Source: an uncultured bacterium
GTDB taxonomy: Bacteria; Patescibacteriota; Minisyncoccia; Phycocordibacterales; UBA9973
NCBI GenBank assembly: GCA_903892035.1
Contig: CAITGV010000001.1
Span: forward strand, 419,310-483,309
Length of the DNA: 64,000 nt
Direction: 5' to 3'
In this document: in pieces, positions 57,079 through 64,000 of the stretch
How the letters are laid out: every line of letters starts with the position of its first letter
How positions within the stretch are numbered: the stretch's first letter is position 1
Program-made: the position numbers and the translations under genes
The notes under the pieces: model-generated
Database searches by the model: none
The model's input: only the letters and a program-made list of their open reading frames with translations
Told to the model about the DNA's origin: nothing

Positions 57079-58446
57079 ATGATTGATGCGATAAATCCGC
57101 TGGATGGGAGATATAAAGATAAGGTTAAACCTTTGGCGGAATACTTCGGCGAGTACGCTCTGATGAAATATCGAGTGATGATGGAATGTGAATTTTTGGT
57201 ATGTTTGGCTGATTCTAAAATTACAACACTACGAAAATTAAGTACTGCAGAAATCGCTCTACTTCGAAACCTTTACAACAATTTTTCCGAGAAATCTTAC
57301 AACGCAATAAAGAAATTTGAAGCCACAACAAATCACGACGTAAAAGCCGTGGAATATTTCATAAAAGACGCACTTAAAGGTACGAGTTTAAAAGACGCTA
57401 TGGAATGGGTGCATTTCGGTTTGACTTCGGAAGACACGAATAACTGTGCAAATGCTCTGATGCTTTCGCTTGGTTCTCGCAATGTAATACTCCCCGCAAT
57501 AGTTGGCATTGAAAACATGCTCCGCACTTTTGCAAAAGAATATAAAAATCTTCCAATGCTTGCTCGCACGCACGGACAGAGCGCAAGCCCGACAACTCTC
57601 GGAAAAGAATTTGCAGTTTTCACAGCGCGCATAAAACGCCAGCGTGAGCAAATGGCAAAATATAAAATTTTGATAAAGTTAAATGGCGCGACGGGGAATT
57701 ACAATGCTTTTGTTTCCGCATATCCAAAAGCAGACTGGCTTGGTTTTACAAAAAAGTTTACAAAGCACCTCGCAGAAATTTCCGGAGCAGAACTTGAAGC
57801 GAATTTAATTACAACGCAAATTGAAAGTCACGACACATATGCCGAGCTTTTCGATATGATGCGCCGAGCAAATACGATAATGCTTGATTTGAATCAAGAT
57901 ATTTGGCGCTATATAAGTGATGGGTATTTGAGTCAGAAAACAAAAGCTGGGGAAGTTGGATCTTCGACGATGCCACACAAAGTGAACCCAATTGATTTTG
58001 AAAATAGTGAAGGCAACTTGGGAATCGCAAATTCTTTATTTGAATTCTTTGCACGAAAGCTTCCTATTTCTCGACTTCAGCGCGACCTTTCCGACTCGAC
58101 AGTCGAGCGTGCTTTCGGTACAGCATTTGGGCATTCATACTTGGCATATGTATCGCTGGAAAAAGGTTTGGGTAAAATCGGCGTGAATGAAAATAAAATA
58201 AAAGAAGATTTACTCGCTCACCCAGAAGTCGTCGCAGAAGCGATTCAGACAGTGCTTCGTCGTGAAGGCTATCCGATACCATATGAAGCACTGAAAGGCC
58301 TCACGCGTGGCAAGGTGGTGACAATGGAGGACTTCGCAGTATTTATCGACGGACTCGATGTAAATAAAAATATTAAAATAGAATTGAAAAAATTCACTCC
58401 ACAAAGTTATATCGGTCTCGCAGGAAAAATCGCCGGCATGGCGTAA
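57079..58446 (+). CDS. purB: Adenylosuccinate lyase
   Basis: PLDGRY, TNHDVKAVEY, RTHGQ, GSSTMPHKVNPIDFE, SRLQRDL. Confidence 0.98.
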   Translation: MIDAINPLDGRYKDKVKPLAEYFGEYALMKYRVMMECEFLVCLADSKITTLRKLSTAEIALLRNLYNNFSEKSYNAIKKFEATTNHDVKAVEYFIKDALKGTSLKDAMEWVHFGLTSEDTNNCANALMLSLGSRNVILPAIVGIENMLRTFAKEYKNLPMLARTHGQSASPTTLGKEFAVFTARIKRQREQMAKYKILIKLNGATGNYNAFVSAYPKADWLGFTKKFTKHLAEISGAELEANLITTQIESHDTYAELFDMMRRANTIMLDLNQDIWRYISDGYLSQKTKAGEVGSSTMPHKVNPIDFENSEGNLGIANSLFEFFARKLPISRLQRDLSDSTVERAFGTAFGHSYLAYVSLEKGLGKIGVNENKIKEDLLAHPEVVAEAIQTVLRREGYPIPYEALKGLTRGKVVTMEDFAVFIDGLDVNKNIKIELKKFTPQSYIGLAGKIAGMA

Positions 58447-58453
58447 AATACAA

Positions 58454-58528
58454 GCCATCATAGCTTAGTGGCAAAGCACTCCCTTGGTAAGGGAGAGACC
58501 GTGAGTCCGATTCTCACTGATGGCTCCA
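58454..58528 (+). tRNA. tRNA-Thr(GGT)
   Basis: GCCATCA/TGATGGC, CTCCC-TTGGTAA-GGGAG, T-loop TCCGATT, TCCA end. Confidence 0.93.
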
Positions 58529-60017
58529 GAATCAAACAGGACGGGTTTTGAGAAAAATTTTGGCGGGCAGAGCGAAGCTCTGCCCAAGGATTTAAAGGGT
58601 TTCCGAATGCTTCTCGTTTTTGGAGGGTGAGGCTCGAGCCGAAGATTTTTTGGAGGGAGATTTTTTTGGAGGGGAGGTCGTTCGTATTGGCGATTTCATC
58701 CAGTATTAAAGCGTCTTTTATCCATTCTCGCGTCGGTTCGATCCATGCGGAGGGGGTTCGCAAAAGTCGCTGTATTTTTTCCTCAACAGACTTTTTATCG
58801 GACATGAAAGAACGACGCCTTTCGAGGTAGTCGTCTCGTTCGATATCTTGAGAAACATAGACATCTGTAAGTCTGGTGAGGTTTTTTGAAATGTTTTGTT
58901 CTTCTTCTCGCAATTCCAACACAGCTTCTGATGCAGTATGTTTATTTTTCTGTTCTTCAACATCCAACATTTCAAAAAGTTTTGTCGCCCATGCTTTAGG
59001 CATCATATATTCAACAAGTATTGCTGAAAGCTGGCGATCCAGTTCTTCGCCTCGCACGCAAGGCTCAAAACATTTTTGCGTTTTGGATTTCTTTGAGCAG
59101 TGATAATAGGTGTATAAATGTTTTGTGCCATTCTTTTGTCGTTTGATTTTTAGCTCTCCCGTTATTCCCATGCCACAATTCCCGCACGACATAAGCCCGC
59201 AAAATGGTCTCGGGTCAGTTTTCTTGTCGGGCGTTCGACCGCGACCTCGCAATACAGCGTTTGCTTTATCAAAAAGTTCTTTGGAAATAATCGGTTCATG
59301 TTTACCCTCGTATATTTCCCCTGCGTGGCGAAAATGTCCGTAGTAGATAGGGTTGCAAATAATATGCGATATTCTCGAAACATGGACACGATTATTATTT
59401 TTTGATTTTATTTCCGAGTTTTCCAAAATCACAGCGAGGTCTTCAAGTCGCACATTTCCTGTGGCGTAAAGTTCAAATATTTTCTTCACGAGTTTCGCAT
59501 TTTTTTGATGAAGTGCAATTTTCTTGATTGCGGGATTGTTGATATAGCCGAACGGAGCAAGACTGGGGAAGTCGCCATTTCGTGCCTTTTGTCGCAGTCC
59601 GCGAGCGGTATTTTCGCTGAGTTGTCGGACATATTCATTAGCCATTCCTAGCTCCACAGACATCATCAACACATTGTCATTTGGAAAATGACTTTGTCCG
59701 TGAGTTTGGATATGTTGGATTATGTTTTGCTGGAGCATCCATTGGATTTTTCCGCTATCTACTGGATTACGAGATAAGCGATCAATTTTCCAGCAAACAA
59801 TTCCTTGCGCTTCTTCATTCTGAACACGCGAAAGCATTTCATTAAAAATTGGTCTGCCTGGAATTTTCGCAGAACGCTTTTCTATAAACTCATCGGCGAT
59901 TGATAGATTTTCACGCTTGGCAAGCTCGCGCAATTCGGTGAGCTGTGCCTCGATAGATAGGATTTGTTTATCCTCCACATCTGTTGATTTGCGAGCGTAT
60001 AAAAAGTATTTAAGCAT
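58458..60017 (-). CDS. Large serine recombinase; its 3' end reads through the tRNA-Thr antisense
   Basis: YARKS catalytic Ser, SAK..GRP.F, DRLSRN, PFGY, Zn ribbon CGNC..YYHC..C, coiled coil; start moved to ATG 60017. Confidence 0.93.
   Translation of the reverse strand: MLKYFLYARKSTDVEDKQILSIEAQLTELRELAKRENLSIADEFIEKRSAKIPGRPIFNEMLSRVQNEEAQGIVCWKIDRLSRNPVDSGKIQWMLQQNIIQHIQTHGQSHFPNDNVLMMSVELGMANEYVRQLSENTARGLRQKARNGDFPSLAPFGYINNPAIKKIALHQKNAKLVKKIFELYATGNVRLEDLAVILENSEIKSKNNNRVHVSRISHIICNPIYYGHFRHAGEIYEGKHEPIISKELFDKANAVLRGRGRTPDKKTDPRPFCGLMSCGNCGMGITGELKIKRQKNGTKHLYTYYHCSKKSKTQKCFEPCVRGEELDRQLSAILVEYMMPKAWATKLFEMLDVEEQKNKHTASEAVLELREEEQNISKNLTRLTDVYVSQDIERDDYLERRRSFMSDKKSVEEKIQRLLRTPSAWIEPTREWIKDALILDEIANTNDLPSKKISLQKIFGSSLTLQKREAFGNPLNPWAELRSARQNFSQNPSCLILEPSVRIGLTVSPLPRECFATKL
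58524..58681. repeat. Left copy of ~160-bp inverted repeat
   Basis: 58542-58632 is the exact reverse complement of 61121-61211 (91 bp). Confidence 0.93.
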
Positions 60018-60077
60018 GGTTGTATTATACCACAACGGATGGCGTAAAATACAACCAAAGAGTATAATCCGTGGATA

Positions 60078-60281
60078 ATGAATGAATCAGAGAAACTGGG
60101 TGAAAATTTAAAGCGTATCAGGACAGCCAAAGAAATATCGCAAGGCGAGATTAGCCGTATTCTCGGCGTGGATAAAAGTTTTGTGAGTAATATAGAAAAT
60201 GGCAAGACAAACCCGACACTTGCAACGATTGCAAAAATTGCGAAAGCGATCGGAGTTTCGGTTGGGGAGTTAATGAAATAA
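60078..60281 (+). CDS. XRE family HTH transcriptional regulator
   Basis: LKRIR...ISQ....ILGVDKSFVSNIENGKTNPTL; divergent from the recombinase. Confidence 0.93.
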   Translation: MNESEKLGENLKRIRTAKEISQGEISRILGVDKSFVSNIENGKTNPTLATIAKIAKAIGVSVGELMK

Positions 60282-60284
60282 AAT

Positions 60285-60980
60285 ATGACAAGAAAAAACG
60301 ACATAGAAGCTCTTTTAGAAAGAGTAGGAAAAGCAGAACCAAAGATTATTGAAGAATATAACAAATCACTTCACGATAAAACGATTGGAAATAATTTGAA
60401 AATTGATATTAAAGATTATTTTAGTCATCTTCGCTCTGTGTTGGATTATTTAGCTCATGATATTGTGGAAAAAAATTGCCCAAATGTTGACCCGAAAGAT
60501 AGGTTATATTTTCCTATTGGTTCAGACCAAAGTTCGTTTGAAGGAATAATGAAAAAATCATATCCTGATCTTAGTACAAATTCTATAAAAGTTTATAGTA
60601 TCCTAGAAAATATTCAACCATATAAGAAATCAGAAAATTTGTGGCTCAGTTCTTTCAATAAAATTAATAACGAAAATAAACACGAGCAGTTAACTCCTCA
60701 AAAAAGAACAGAAACAAAGAGGATAAATGTACAAGCTAATAACGGAGCTTCTGTTTCTTGGAATCCTTCTTCCGTTCGATTTGGTTCGGGTGTTTCAATT
60801 GCTGGAGTACCTGTAAATCCTAGTACGCAAATGCCAGTACCTTCAAATATTCAAACAGTAACGATTGAAACTTGGGTAGATTTTCAGTTTGAGGGTACGG
60901 GAGTATCAGCAATTTGGTTAGTAAAAGAAAGTCTCAAAAATGTAAAGGAAATTTTTAATGATTTGAAAAATTATATTTAA
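60285..60980 (+). CDS. Hypothetical cargo protein (possible HEPN-like helical fold)
   Basis: HLRSVLDY, YFP, QPY, N.NKH motifs. Confidence 0.6.
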   Translation: MTRKNDIEALLERVGKAEPKIIEEYNKSLHDKTIGNNLKIDIKDYFSHLRSVLDYLAHDIVEKNCPNVDPKDRLYFPIGSDQSSFEGIMKKSYPDLSTNSIKVYSILENIQPYKKSENLWLSSFNKINNENKHEQLTPQKRTETKRINVQANNGASVSWNPSSVRFGSGVSIAGVPVNPSTQMPVPSNIQTVTIETWVDFQFEGTGVSAIWLVKESLKNVKEIFNDLKNYI

Positions 60981-61061
60981 ATTAGGGAGTTTGACGATTT
61001 ACTAATCGGCAAAATTTTTAACACGCGCACGGGTGGGTGGGGCAAGTGTTATCTGAATTGC

Positions 61062-61274
61062 ACGACCTCCCCTCCAAAAAAATCTTCCCTCCAAAAATCT
61101 TGGGCTTTTGAATTTTTGAACCTCACCCTCCAAAAACGAGAAGCATTCGGAAACCCTTTAAATCCTTGGGCAGAGCTTCGCTCTGCCCGCCAAAATTTTT
61201 CTCAAAACCCGCCCGTTTTAATTCTGGAGTCCCTCTTAAACAAGGCTCGAACCTACTTTAGCAAAAATTCGTAA
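61062..61274 (+). pseudogene. Inverted copy of the recombinase 3' end with an alternative C-terminus (right inverted repeat 61062-61229)
   Basis: Reads ...ELRSARQNFSQNPPVLILESLLNKARTYFSKNS-stop (TAA 61272-61274); indels in the 5' part. Confidence 0.8.
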
Positions 61275-61562
61275 GAGTACAAACAATGCTAAGTGGTACG
61301 CTCCACGACCGTCGTTCATCCGAGTTACCACTACGCTCGCACTCTGTGCTAATTCTGTCGCCCGCTTCTCATCGGGAGTACCCTCACGATGTCCGCCCCT
61401 CTCCCGCATCGCTTTTCCATTCTTCTTTGAGTCGGCGGGGTTTCTTTTTGATTCGTATGGGCGATGCGGGAGGGGCGGGCGAGATCTAGAAAATTTTGAC
61501 TAAAATATATAATAATGTTATTATGTATAAAAATAAATTTGTTCACTTAAAACGTATTAAAA

Positions 61563-62588
61563 ATGGAAGATAAGAAATTAGATAAACAAGTCGCTGGCAT
61601 TTCTGCCGTAGCTCATTACGTTCCGCAGTTAATTAGAACTAGCGAGGATGTAGAAAAGTTGATTAATGCTCACTTAAAGCCAGAAATACAAACTGGCAGT
61701 ATTGAACGCCTTTCAGGTATTATCACTCGACACATTTCTCGTGAAGATGAATACAATTCTACCTTGGCGATAGGAGCATGTCGCATTCTTTTTGAAAAAG
61801 AAAAAATAAATCCAAGTGATATTGATTTATTGATTTTTGCTTCAACTGGTCAAGACATACTCGAACCTGCAACTGCACACATTGTGCAGGCAGAAATTGG
61901 CACGCATTGTAGAGTAATGGATATTAAAAATGCATGCAATGGATTTATTGATGCTTTTGATGTTGCGGTTTCTCTTATTGAAACGGGTAGACATAAAAAG
62001 GTACTAATTGCTACAGGTGAAGTGCCAAGCAAAGCTGCAAAGTTTGAAGTCCCCGATCGTGATTTACTACAGCAATATCTTGTAGGACACACCTTTGGTG
62101 ATTGCGGTACTGCGGTACTGATTACAGAAAAACCTAAGATTGCTACTGTAATAGATTCTTTCTTTTTTTCGGATAGTAGTAATTGGGATGTCGCAATGTT
62201 TCCAGGAGGTGGATCACGTTTTTTAAACCAACGAGATGCCTATTTCTTTAGAGGAGACGCAACTGCTCTCATGGAACCATTTTTCGTCCACACAAAAAGG
62301 CTACTTGAAGACTTTTTGAAACGAAACAATATTTCTCTGTCTAACATTGATCATATCTTCGTACACCAAGTTGCAGAATTTGTTTTAGATAGAATTTGTA
62401 ATGATTTACAAATTCCAAAAGCAAAGATACAGGTTACGATCAAAGAATATGGAAATGTAGCGGCAGCGAGTTTACCACTTGCCCTTGATTTACGCTTAAA
62501 AAGCCAGATTATTTTTTCTGGAACTTATGGGTTGTTTATCGGATTTGCAGGTGGCTTCAGTATTGGGTTTACGCTGGTTAAGTTTTAG
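61563..62588 (+). CDS. 3-oxoacyl-ACP synthase III family / OleA-like condensing enzyme
   Basis: EPATA, NAC, HQV, GNV..AS (Cys-His-Asn triad). Confidence 0.85.
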   Translation: MEDKKLDKQVAGISAVAHYVPQLIRTSEDVEKLINAHLKPEIQTGSIERLSGIITRHISREDEYNSTLAIGACRILFEKEKINPSDIDLLIFASTGQDILEPATAHIVQAEIGTHCRVMDIKNACNGFIDAFDVAVSLIETGRHKKVLIATGEVPSKAAKFEVPDRDLLQQYLVGHTFGDCGTAVLITEKPKIATVIDSFFFSDSSNWDVAMFPGGGSRFLNQRDAYFFRGDATALMEPFFVHTKRLLEDFLKRNNISLSNIDHIFVHQVAEFVLDRICNDLQIPKAKIQVTIKEYGNVAAASLPLALDLRLKSQIIFSGTYGLFIGFAGGFSIGFTLVKF

Positions 62589-62609
62589 TTGTCCTTCGGA
62601 AAAATTTTC

Positions 62610-62642
62610 AAAATCTGCACCAGAAATGGTGCAGATTTTTTT
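62610..62642 (+). terminator. Stem-loop with T tail
   Basis: AAAATCTGCACCA-GAAA-TGGTGCAGATTTT. Confidence 0.65.
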
Positions 62643-62673
62643 ACGCAAAATTGCTATAATCATACAGCACGAT

Positions 62674-64000
62674 ATGAAATACACTCTTTATTCGAACATT
62701 ATTTTAAATAGTTTAAAAACCACACTTTCAAGCACAGAAAGTGCTCTTATTTTTGATCATAAAAATCGGAACATTACGGGAGTACAAATTTTAGAATCTA
62801 TAGACAAAATTGCTCTAGAACTTATTGGCGAAGGAATAAAAAGAAATGATAGGATTATCTTTTTAGTTAGACCGTCTATAGAATCTATAATCTATTTTTT
62901 TGCTCTACTGCGTGCAGGAGTTGTTGTTGTTCTTGTTGACCCTGAAATGGGACAAGAGAATTTTGTCAGCCGAATCAAATTTTCAAAAGCTCATTTTATC
63001 TTACAAGATAAAATTTTAGAGAAAATTGAAAAGTATTCTTTTATTAAACCTTTACTTAGATTTTTAAATATATGGTTTCCTGATAATTTACCAATTCCTA
63101 CTCAAAATAGAATTACGGTAAAAAATCTTGAATTCATATTACAACGAAATACCGCAGGTATTATTGATGAAAAAGTAGTTGATGCAAGTGAAGATATGGT
63201 AATTATATTTACTTCTGGGACAGTCAATAAACCTAAAGGGGTTGTGCATTCTTACTCATCTTTATTTAATGCACTTAATATAATTTCTTCTGAAATATCA
63301 ATTTCAAAAAGCGATTTTCTATACGCTTCACAATTCTACTTCTTACTCATTGGACTTATGGTTTCTGCTCGGACTTACATTCCAAAAAATAAAACTTTTA
63401 GTCCTGAAAGTTTTTTAAAAATTGGTTTAAAATTCAAGATAACAAGTGCTTTTCTTTTGCCGTATGAGGGCGAGCTTATTTATAAATATTGCACAAAAAA
63501 TAAAATAATCCTTCCTAATTCTTTTAAAACGATCTTATTCGGCTCTGCTCCAGTTACAAAAGGTTTTTTGTCACGATTTTCAAATATATGTAATCTATCA
63601 TTAAAAGTTTACGGTGTTTACGGGGCAACTGAAATGTTGCCAATTTCACTAGTGGAAATGCAGGAAAAAATAAATTATAAAGGCAAGGGAGATTTACTTG
63701 GTAAGCCAACAAAAGGAGTGGAAATAAAAATTTCAGAAGATAAAGAAATTCTTGTTTCTGGCTCTCAATTATTTGTTAAGTATCTAGGCGACAATGAAAA
63801 AGCGAAATATTTTTACTCGGGAGATTTAGGTGAAATTGACAATGAGGGCAACATCATATTATTAGGACGGAAAAAAGATATGATTATTCGGAAAGGATTT
63901 AACATCTATCCAACTTTATTTGAAGTAAGTATTAGTAAAATGCCTGAAATTATTGAGTGTAGTATTGTTGGTGTATATGACGACAAAACAGAAGACGAAA
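62674..64000 (+). CDS. AMP-binding (ANL) enzyme, OleC-like (3'-truncated by window, absent from ORF track)
   Basis: Hand translation: MKYTLYS...VLVDPEMG...IIFTSGTVNKPKGV...GSAP...YGATE...SGDLG...GRKKDMIIR. Confidence 0.88.
   Translation, partial: MKYTLYSNIILNSLKTTLSSTESALIFDHKNRNITGVQILESIDKIALELIGEGIKRNDRIIFLVRPSIESIIYFFALLRAGVVVVLVDPEMGQENFVSRIKFSKAHFILQDKILEKIEKYSFIKPLLRFLNIWFPDNLPIPTQNRITVKNLEFILQRNTAGIIDEKVVDASEDMVIIFTSGTVNKPKGVVHSYSSLFNALNIISSEISISKSDFLYASQFYFLLIGLMVSARTYIPKNKTFSPESFLKIGLKFKITSAFLLPYEGELIYKYCTKNKIILPNSFKTILFGSAPVTKGFLSRFSNICNLSLKVYGVYGATEMLPISLVEMQEKINYKGKGDLLGKPTKGVEIKISEDKEILVSGSQLFVKYLGDNEKAKYFYSGDLGEIDNEGNIILLGRKKDMIIRKGFNIYPTLFEVSISKMPEIIECSIVGVYDDKTEDE

Follow-up and report, generated by a model that had tools for sequence, protein, structure and literature searches.

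Why should the gene of a large serine recombinase (LSR) that runs into the end of a tRNA be accompanied by an inverted copy of its own 3' end, and why should that copy encode a different C-terminus? The question is raised by a 64,000-nt stretch of DNA, hereafter the window, that covers positions 419310-483309 of contig C1 of an uncultured patescibacterium of the UBA9973 lineage (source genome G000, 807 kb in five contigs, C1, C3 and C5 among them). Our analysis points to an integrated element whose attachment site, attP, lies within the recombinase gene, the crossover point falling 14 codons ahead of the native end of the gene, and in which a second attP, complete and inverted, is kept together with a spare copy of the recombinase tail. 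The family to which it belongs is a real and apparently undescribed variant of serine-integrase elements. Positions refer to the window unless a contig or locus is named; P1 denotes the repeated arm, one copy of which is coding, and P2 the DNA that follows the right arm.

The split recombinase and its spare tail

The integration target is a tRNA-Thr(GGT) gene (58454..58528, plus strand; ARAGORN and Rfam), the final CA of which comes from the element. The crossover core of attL, CTC at 58524..58526 (plus strand), corresponds to C72-U73-C74 of the tRNA and to a Glu codon (GAG) of the recombinase, and is common to attL, the internal attP and attR. The recombinase occupies 58458..60017 on the minus strand and is in the split state: its 519 residues include a 20-residue tail read from the tRNA antisense strand, the open reading frame (ORF) ending in ..LILEPSVRIGLTVSPLPRECFATKL. 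Approximately the last 52 recombinase codons ahead of the core make up the coding P1 arm (58527..58681, minus strand). The spare P1 arm, which is non-coding, lies at 61062..61226 (plus strand), carries a 10-nt insertion near its inner end and is followed by the core GAG of the internal, inverted and complete attP (61227..61229, plus strand). In the same frame the right arm ends in ..LILESLLNKARTYFSKNS and a stop; the P2 arm (61230..61481, plus strand) opens with the codons SLLNKARTYFSKNS and a stop (61230-61274), contains TCGAAC at 61247-61252, continues into structured GC-rich DNA and belongs to a second inverted pair that begins at 61230. The P1 arms align over 112 nt at 96% (58524-58635/61118-61229) and over 45 nt at 89% (58637-58681/61062-61106), jointly 169 columns at 88.8% identity with a 10-nt gap (E ~1e-57 versus the genome), and the longest identical run between them is 91 nt. 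Each arm holds three copies of the CCCTCCAAAAA box and a hairpin with a GAA loop (58565-58585 and 61168-61188). The inverted repeats, 91-nt core, boxes and hairpin reported by the first-pass annotation are all present, and translation confirmed both the tRNA-antisense end of the recombinase and the alternative in-frame end offered by the right arm.

The protein carries the Pfam domains Resolvase, Recombinase and Zn_ribbon_recom in this order, and Y7, R9, S11 and four Cys residues are invariant in alignment A1. A model of a natural intact homologue, P0020 (pLDDT 83, pTM 0.43), has a serine-integrase fold with a coiled coil; its top Foldseek matches were serine integrases (E 3e-22), the best match in the PDB being 9Y66. 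In this model the final helix (493-511) spans the crossover and is completed by the tail. Among 49 distinct P2 sequences, the recombinase frame gave a pN/pS of 0.32 for the tail, the other two sense frames gave 0.70 and 1.54, and the antisense frame that shares the recombinase codon positions gave 0.37; stops within the first 11 tail codons occurred in 0/49 sequences in the recombinase frame versus 21/49 and 30/49 in the others; the P2 sequences are related, so neither the ratios nor the stop counts amount to a formal test. The tails that split enzymes take from tRNAs are 2-67 residues long and unconstrained. Among homologues, where the first-pass annotation had suggested looking for it, the ARTYF ending recurs: 10 of the 109 classifiable representatives carry it and 99 end otherwise, mostly tRNA-like (120 representatives were listed, of which 11 were unclassed, 22 weaker matches were left out, and the query itself carried a tRNA tail). 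These sequence patterns indicate that the ARTYF tail is real protein under selection. The earlier proposal that inversion would give back a conserved C-terminus, with no damage to the tRNA, agrees with the constraint on the tail and with the in-frame right arm.

The complete element, its attachment sites and its family

The layout of the element is tRNA/attL – LSR – inverted complete attP – cargo – attR. P2 of the window has an inverted partner at the end of C1 and related copies at the end of C3 and at C3:33392. At C3:33392, host-like DNA and the same GAG core stand before the P2 copy, and joining the tRNA end to this flank places tRNA-Thr directly ahead of rpmF. In the family, tRNA-Thr lies at most 1.5 kb upstream of rpmF at 6/30 rpmF loci; at an empty site (L150 in genome G011) the end of tRNA-Thr(GGT) is 55 nt from the rpmF match, and in a further relative (L126 in G024) the gene order is purB-Thr-Thr-rpmF. 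Since the flank joins tRNA-Thr to rpmF as in the empty sites of relatives, C3:33392 is attR, in direct orientation to attL. The first-pass annotation had taken the direct att half to be absent, which proved wrong, and had suggested as one option an unusual integration mechanism that generates inverted repeats. With attR in place, the result of integration is the ordinary one, and what the inverted copy adds is a further attP that is inherited. It is this second, inverted and inherited attP that is new. The element is at least 14 kb long, including an assembly gap across which we infer that C1 and C3 are linked. The ends of C1 (488074) and C3 (37472) carry the same terminal 141 nt of P2, such that two cargo blocks face each other across the gap, and a tandem or cassette array between them is possible. 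The P1 layout is present three times in the source genome, at tRNA-Thr, at tRNA-Leu (C5, 161 nt, 98.8%) and at tRNA-Ala (C1, 124 nt, 100%).

A tree of 142 recombinases (duplicates and proteins below 400 aa removed; FastTree, midpoint-rooted) placed all 92 members with an inverted arm in one clade of 118 LSRs with support 1.0, the remainder of which consists of 21 members with too little flanking sequence and 5 scored as armless, 2 of these 5 at a contig edge before the arm. The sister clade of 17 LSRs mostly ends at tRNAs too and has an inverted arm in 0/10 testable members; a simple exact search found no direct repeats upstream of its recombinases. One sister-clade recombinase, with no inverted arm and ending in tRNA-Ser (anticodon ACT), lies in the source genome itself (C1:150484-152165). 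Close relatives of the recombinase come mostly from Patescibacteria and, at E ≤ 1e-90 and with the sister clade included, occur in 71/401 genomes of the same class. The targets are tRNAs for Thr, Ser, Ala, Leu, Gly, Lys, Arg and others as well as tmRNA. ARAGORN missed some target tRNAs, including those of L057, L060, L061 and L214; in L057 and L061 long intron-like insertions follow the T-arm side. The target at L055:9594-9669 was assigned the anticodon TTA (stop), which may be a sequencing error or a suppressor.

Twenty-five complete elements, chosen for having both repeat pairs, showed the order attR – cargo – inverted attP – recombinase – attL; for one of these, the genome (G006) consists of a single contig. 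All 25 retain the complete inverted attP, a departure from serine-integrase elements with a single attP that is no longer present once they are integrated. Their P1 pairs measure 46-175 nt, their P2 pairs 68-383 nt and their cargo 0.8-8 kb, and in 21/24 of them attL and attR overlap by 3-8 nt centred on C72-N73-C74 of the tRNA. Most elements have cargo unrelated to that of the others; a Pfam scan of 62 cargo proteins turned up type I restriction-modification systems, methylases, a reverse transcriptase and S49 proteases, next to many proteins without a family. In many elements the recombinase is the sole ORF of at least 55 aa between the arms. Recombination directionality factors are not recognisable by sequence. 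Among other cargo, a gene at L155:433-1455 matched an ADP-ribosyltransferase exoenzyme family of Pfam (E 5e-11), and at L119:2108-10499 an operon for histidine biosynthesis that includes a TrpR-like gene, named from the sequence and not from database matches, lies between P2 arms after an intact recombinase. No virion or replication genes were found among the 62 cargo proteins, and no phage or conjugation genes were seen. In IMG/VR, the alignment query returned no free forms and the sequence query only two matches of 27-28%, and the plasmid collection yielded only distant recombinases, all below 60% identity and ~24-31% among the 12 matches listed. A prophage or plasmid identity finds no support in these 62 proteins or in the viral and plasmid collections.

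The attachment sites share a TCGAAC-like motif, which stands 17 nt from the core in P2 (46/47) and at a distance of 12-14 nt in the tRNA T-loop (47/47; GTCCGA at 58505-58510 on the attB side of the window locus). The shift between the P2 and tRNA sides is 4 nt for GAG and GTG cores and 5 nt for CGG cores. For the LI integrase, the accessible text of PMC3783163 places the zinc-ribbon motif at attP positions 16-24 and 5 bp closer in attB. The motif occurs on the P2 and tRNA half-sites only; it is missing from P1 and from the downstream flanks (0/21), the host DNA of which carries no information, and a symmetry test of P1 versus P2 gave no clear register. The enzyme thus presumably reads only the P2 and tRNA halves specifically. 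Because the motif is so distributed, a P2 half meets a tRNA half in attB x attP, in attL x attR and in attL x internal attP, but not in internal attP x attR.

The spare arm is never coding. Over its first 100 nt it is 90-100% identical to the coding arm of its own element (at least 96% in 10/11), whereas arms of different Thr-clade elements are 73% identical, and across 65 elements the mismatch between arms is ~1% over 80 nt from the core and climbs past ~100 nt. These identities show the spare arm to be actively maintained, that is, homogenised with the coding arm. The 10-nt insertion at the inner end is present in at least 8 of the 11 Thr-clade spare arms listed, indicating that the inner part of the spare arm is inherited; that the repeats are made anew at each insertion is disfavoured on this account. 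Triloop hairpins of the type C-GNA-G occurred in 39/65 coding P1 arms, versus 0.1 in shuffled sequences and 0.2 in the gene body, and in 11/41 P2 arms versus 0.2 in shuffled sequences, which hints at a single-stranded or cruciform phase.

Two further features of the source genome touch this architecture. A non-coding element of ~240 nt, 71-87% conserved, adjoins one P2 arm and is often followed by a small conserved gene (C3:33600-33915 and C1:487270-487504; also L041, L048, L058, L061 and L120); it has no match in Rfam, tRNA being the sole Rfam match in L001 and L002. At C3:6816-9471 (L004), a tRNA-Thr(TGT) has a duplicated 3' half, a 34-nt stub replaces the recombinase module and 2 kb of cargo are flanked by inverted P2 arms that are 87% identical; this locus is a recombinase-less derivative of the family.

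Orientation of the module and models for its use

Of the 92 arm-bearing loci, 80 have their own coding arm at the tRNA and one (L044) carries the spare arm in that place; for the other 11 no assignment was possible. Read evidence came from Logan contigs (X1 to X4), from which rare variants are dropped. In X1, a single contig of depth 89 spans 58603-61150 with zero differences, and at this depth of ~90 no strand-switch joint was found. X2 contains a strand-switch joint of depth 7 that runs through the 91-nt identical core and cannot be phased; we did not count it as a flip, because the 91 letters are compatible with either side and the contigs flanking them break off early, at depth 4-5. A loose end in X2 matches no contig end of the source genome; a single copy of its first 21 letters lies at C5:40146 and runs on differently. 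X3 and X4 cover the stretch patchily or by relatives. Intact recombinase forms do occur in assemblies. The exact intact-junction pattern of the Thr clade was found in two contigs of the JGI metagenomes (L119 and L120), neither with a tRNA on the spare arm: the L119 contig breaks off 326 nt upstream of the recombinase, and in L120 the recombinase is joined to the P2 copy, after which comes the structured element normally at attR, an arrangement compatible with a circle junction as well as with an assembly error. In L157 and L227 the recombinase is joined to a P2-like arm of another element. Separately, L227, L011/L187 and L201 have the recombinase arm joined to a second P2-like type (..LxDVRT..) with no tRNA nearby, which suggests insertion into the site of another element or a related subfamily. 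Relative to the internal attP, cargo genes point away in 18/25 complete elements, towards it in 6/25 and both ways in 1/25. A marker block adjoins attR in L041, L047, L048, L063 and the source genome, but in L058 its neighbour is the internal attP, which means that the cargo has been reversed on at least one occasion.

The reading we favour, and which we give about an even chance of being right, is that the internal attP and its spare tail form a one-way self-switch with rare re-arming, a cycle inferred in all its steps. The excised element would be a circle with two inverted attP sites and would integrate by ordinary attP x attB recombination at C72-N73-C74 of the tRNA. The attP copies are identical far beyond the binding site, so either would be usable for integration, and as they are alike in the circle, the 80:1 bias calls for a filter after integration, the option we favour, or a strand-specific route. 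Integration via the gene's own attP copy would yield the split enzyme and a stable island, the loss of 14 residues presumably disarming the enzyme; integration via the other copy would yield an intact enzyme, which would either invert the module that carries it (attL x attP) or excise, with the split state as the end point. The tail would be regained, and the island mobilised anew with no need of a directionality factor, through rare recombination between the 100-170-nt arms or through an intact enzyme supplied in trans. This cycle is supported by the layout and its distribution over the two clades, by attR and the empty sites, by the constrained tail, the half-site motif and the intact forms in assemblies, and by one reversed locus (L044) and one reversed cargo block (L058); the orientation counts suggest that a flip, where it takes place, is likely to be rare and one-way.

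Several points weigh against the self-switch. The reads of X1 gave neither a flip nor a circle, and IMG/VR and the plasmid collection yielded no free form. The other junction of L044 enters unrelated GC-rich DNA at a contig end and looks chimeric, and faulty assembly at the repeats could have produced the intact proteins. According to the accessible text of PMC3783163, attL x attP is not among the reactions of canonical serine integrases. Finally, a one-way switch leaves the GNA-loop hairpins unexplained.

One rival draws on the yeast 2-micron plasmid, in which recombination takes place between inverted sites: by analogy the spare attP may act only in the excised circle, where it would isomerise or amplify the element or keep attP repaired without any chromosomal flip. 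The geometry of the circle, in which a 200-500-nt inverted repeat stands between two unique segments and has the crossover in its middle, the concerted evolution of the arms, the 80:1 orientation and the circle-like junction of L120, with its P2 copy usual at attR, fit this proposal, but the 62 cargo proteins scanned include no replication gene, the near absence of integration through the second attP is left unexplained and L044 and L058 display other orientations; we consider it unlikely. Integron cassettes and CTXphi, which insert as single strands, are the model for a dumbbell in which the repeats build a double-stranded attP on one strand that is inserted at the tRNA end. One-strand exchange would yield exactly the observed layout with its polarity fixed, the arms would be kept alike by folding, and both the excess of C-GNA-G hairpins in P1 and P2 arms and the lack of information in the downstream flanks would be accounted for. 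Serine recombinases, however, cut both strands and rotate, the fold and domains of this enzyme are canonical, and the 10-nt insertion of the spare arm speaks for inheritance and not for re-copying in each cycle, which makes the dumbbell somewhat harder still to credit.

The first-pass annotation had favoured a freely self-switching segment that toggles the C-terminus of the enzyme. A flip would indeed recreate the same two sites with the conserved tail in frame, and the ARTYF end does occur among representatives (10/109). Free phase variation is nevertheless unlikely because of the 80:1 orientation bias, the missing joint in X1 and the unphaseable joint in X2, and the scarcity of intact junctions in the JGI metagenomes (two contigs, neither with a tRNA on the spare arm) and the cargo strand distribution (18 away, 6 towards, 1 mixed) count against it as well; we rate its probability as low. 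Differences between the arms at 4 positions near the core and in the 10-nt gap, together with a genome assembly that breaks at P2 copies, might suggest that the right copy is a relic of a second insertion or a misassembly. This was rejected, in line with the reading of the first-pass annotation, on the clade-wide layout, the selection on the tail, the tracking of one arm by the other and the X1 contigs: the same arrangement stands at three tRNAs of the source genome and throughout the clade, identity is 90-100% within an element versus 73% between elements, and X1 reproduces the assembled inner segment, leaving this explanation next to no credence.

Extending the one-way self-switch to the family as a whole is more speculative, and we hold the extension with clearly less than even confidence. 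The enzymes may be self-disarming bacterial serine integrases that draw directionality from DNA architecture and not from an accessory protein: reading a single pair of half-site types, such an enzyme would lose its last helix on integration or when its own gene flips, and would be re-armed from an inverted spare attP that gene conversion keeps identical, possibly in a folded single-stranded dumbbell with GNA-loop hairpins. The elements would then be a main cassette-delivery system of Patescibacteria.

Neighbouring features and relation to known systems

Between the arms of the window locus, the recombinase is divergent from an XRE-type helix-turn-helix (HTH) gene (60078..60281, plus strand; Pfam HTH_3, E 1e-16), the product of which is likely to be the recombinase repressor. 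The spacer between the two (60018-60056) contains an inverted repeat, GGTTGTATT..AATACAACC, a likely candidate operator, and 16 nt of the spacer recur directly before the tRNA (58438-58453), possibly by chance. A passenger ORF of 231 aa without a Pfam family follows within the recombinase module (60285..60980, plus strand). Just inside the spare arm lies a G-rich non-coding motif, AACAC..GGGTGGGTGGG..GTGTT (61020..61050, plus strand), which is present in at least 9 of the 11 Thr-clade spare arms listed and kept in most Thr-clade elements. The cargo starts with a FabH-like synthase and an AMP-binding ligase (61563..64000, plus strand; Pfam) and goes on past the window end with a gene of the NAD-dependent epimerase family and with genes for a cyclase and an AurF-like oxygenase.

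With large serine integrases (LI/A118, phiC31, Bxb1; PDB 4KIS, 9RAH, 9IU2) the family shares the catalytic, recombinase, zinc-ribbon and coiled-coil domains, a short core and attL and attR in direct orientation, and, as in the LI integrase, the motif is nearer the core in attB than in attP, by 4-5 nt here versus 5 bp (PMC3783163, accessible text). Unlike in those systems, attP lies inside the 3' end of the gene, a second inverted attP is kept within the element, the motif marks one half-site only, the targets are many tRNA and tmRNA 3' ends and phage or conjugation genes are not in evidence. The predicted circle, with two unique segments and long inverted repeats centred on the site, resembles the Flp/FRT system of the yeast 2-micron plasmid, which differs in its tyrosine recombinase and in being an autonomous replicon that is not integrative. 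As in invertons, Hin/Gin-type switches and shufflons, a flip between inverted sites would swap a protein C-terminus, but in the present family the gene affected is that of the recombinase itself, att junctions of an integrated element serve as the sites and one orientation dominates; both orientations, as found in phase-variable invertons, were not seen in the Logan contigs (no joint in X1, an unphaseable one in X2) or across genomes (80:1). Integron cassettes and CTXphi likewise have inverted repeats that can fold into a duplex site on one strand and a small, variable cargo, but use tyrosine recombinases and single-strand exchange. Similar in their working are the archaeal suicidal tyrosine integrases (SSV1, pTN3, pT26-2), in which, according to the accessible text of PMC8371274, the site lies within the gene, which is broken on integration into a tRNA, excision is thought to require an intact copy, and self-disrupting recombinases are described as exclusively archaeal. 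The recombination site in the enzyme's own gene and the splitting of that gene on integration are common to both; the present family differs in its serine chemistry and bacterial host, does not belong to the SSV family, loses only 14 residues and carries an inverted spare tail in cis.

The accessible text of PMC12884075 mentions neither Patescibacteria nor inverted sites. We found no description of the layout in the literature searched, to which most subscription papers and the supplements of recombinase and island databases, which may list such elements unremarked, did not belong. To our knowledge, few mobile elements have been described in Patescibacteria. The family extends self-disrupting integrases, described as archaeal only in the accessible text of PMC8371274, to bacterial serine enzymes, and it provides a testable route to the control of directionality without an accessory factor. 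Furthermore, the reading of the tRNA T-arm, the 3-nt core and the unconstrained downstream flank could make these enzymes possible tools for integration.

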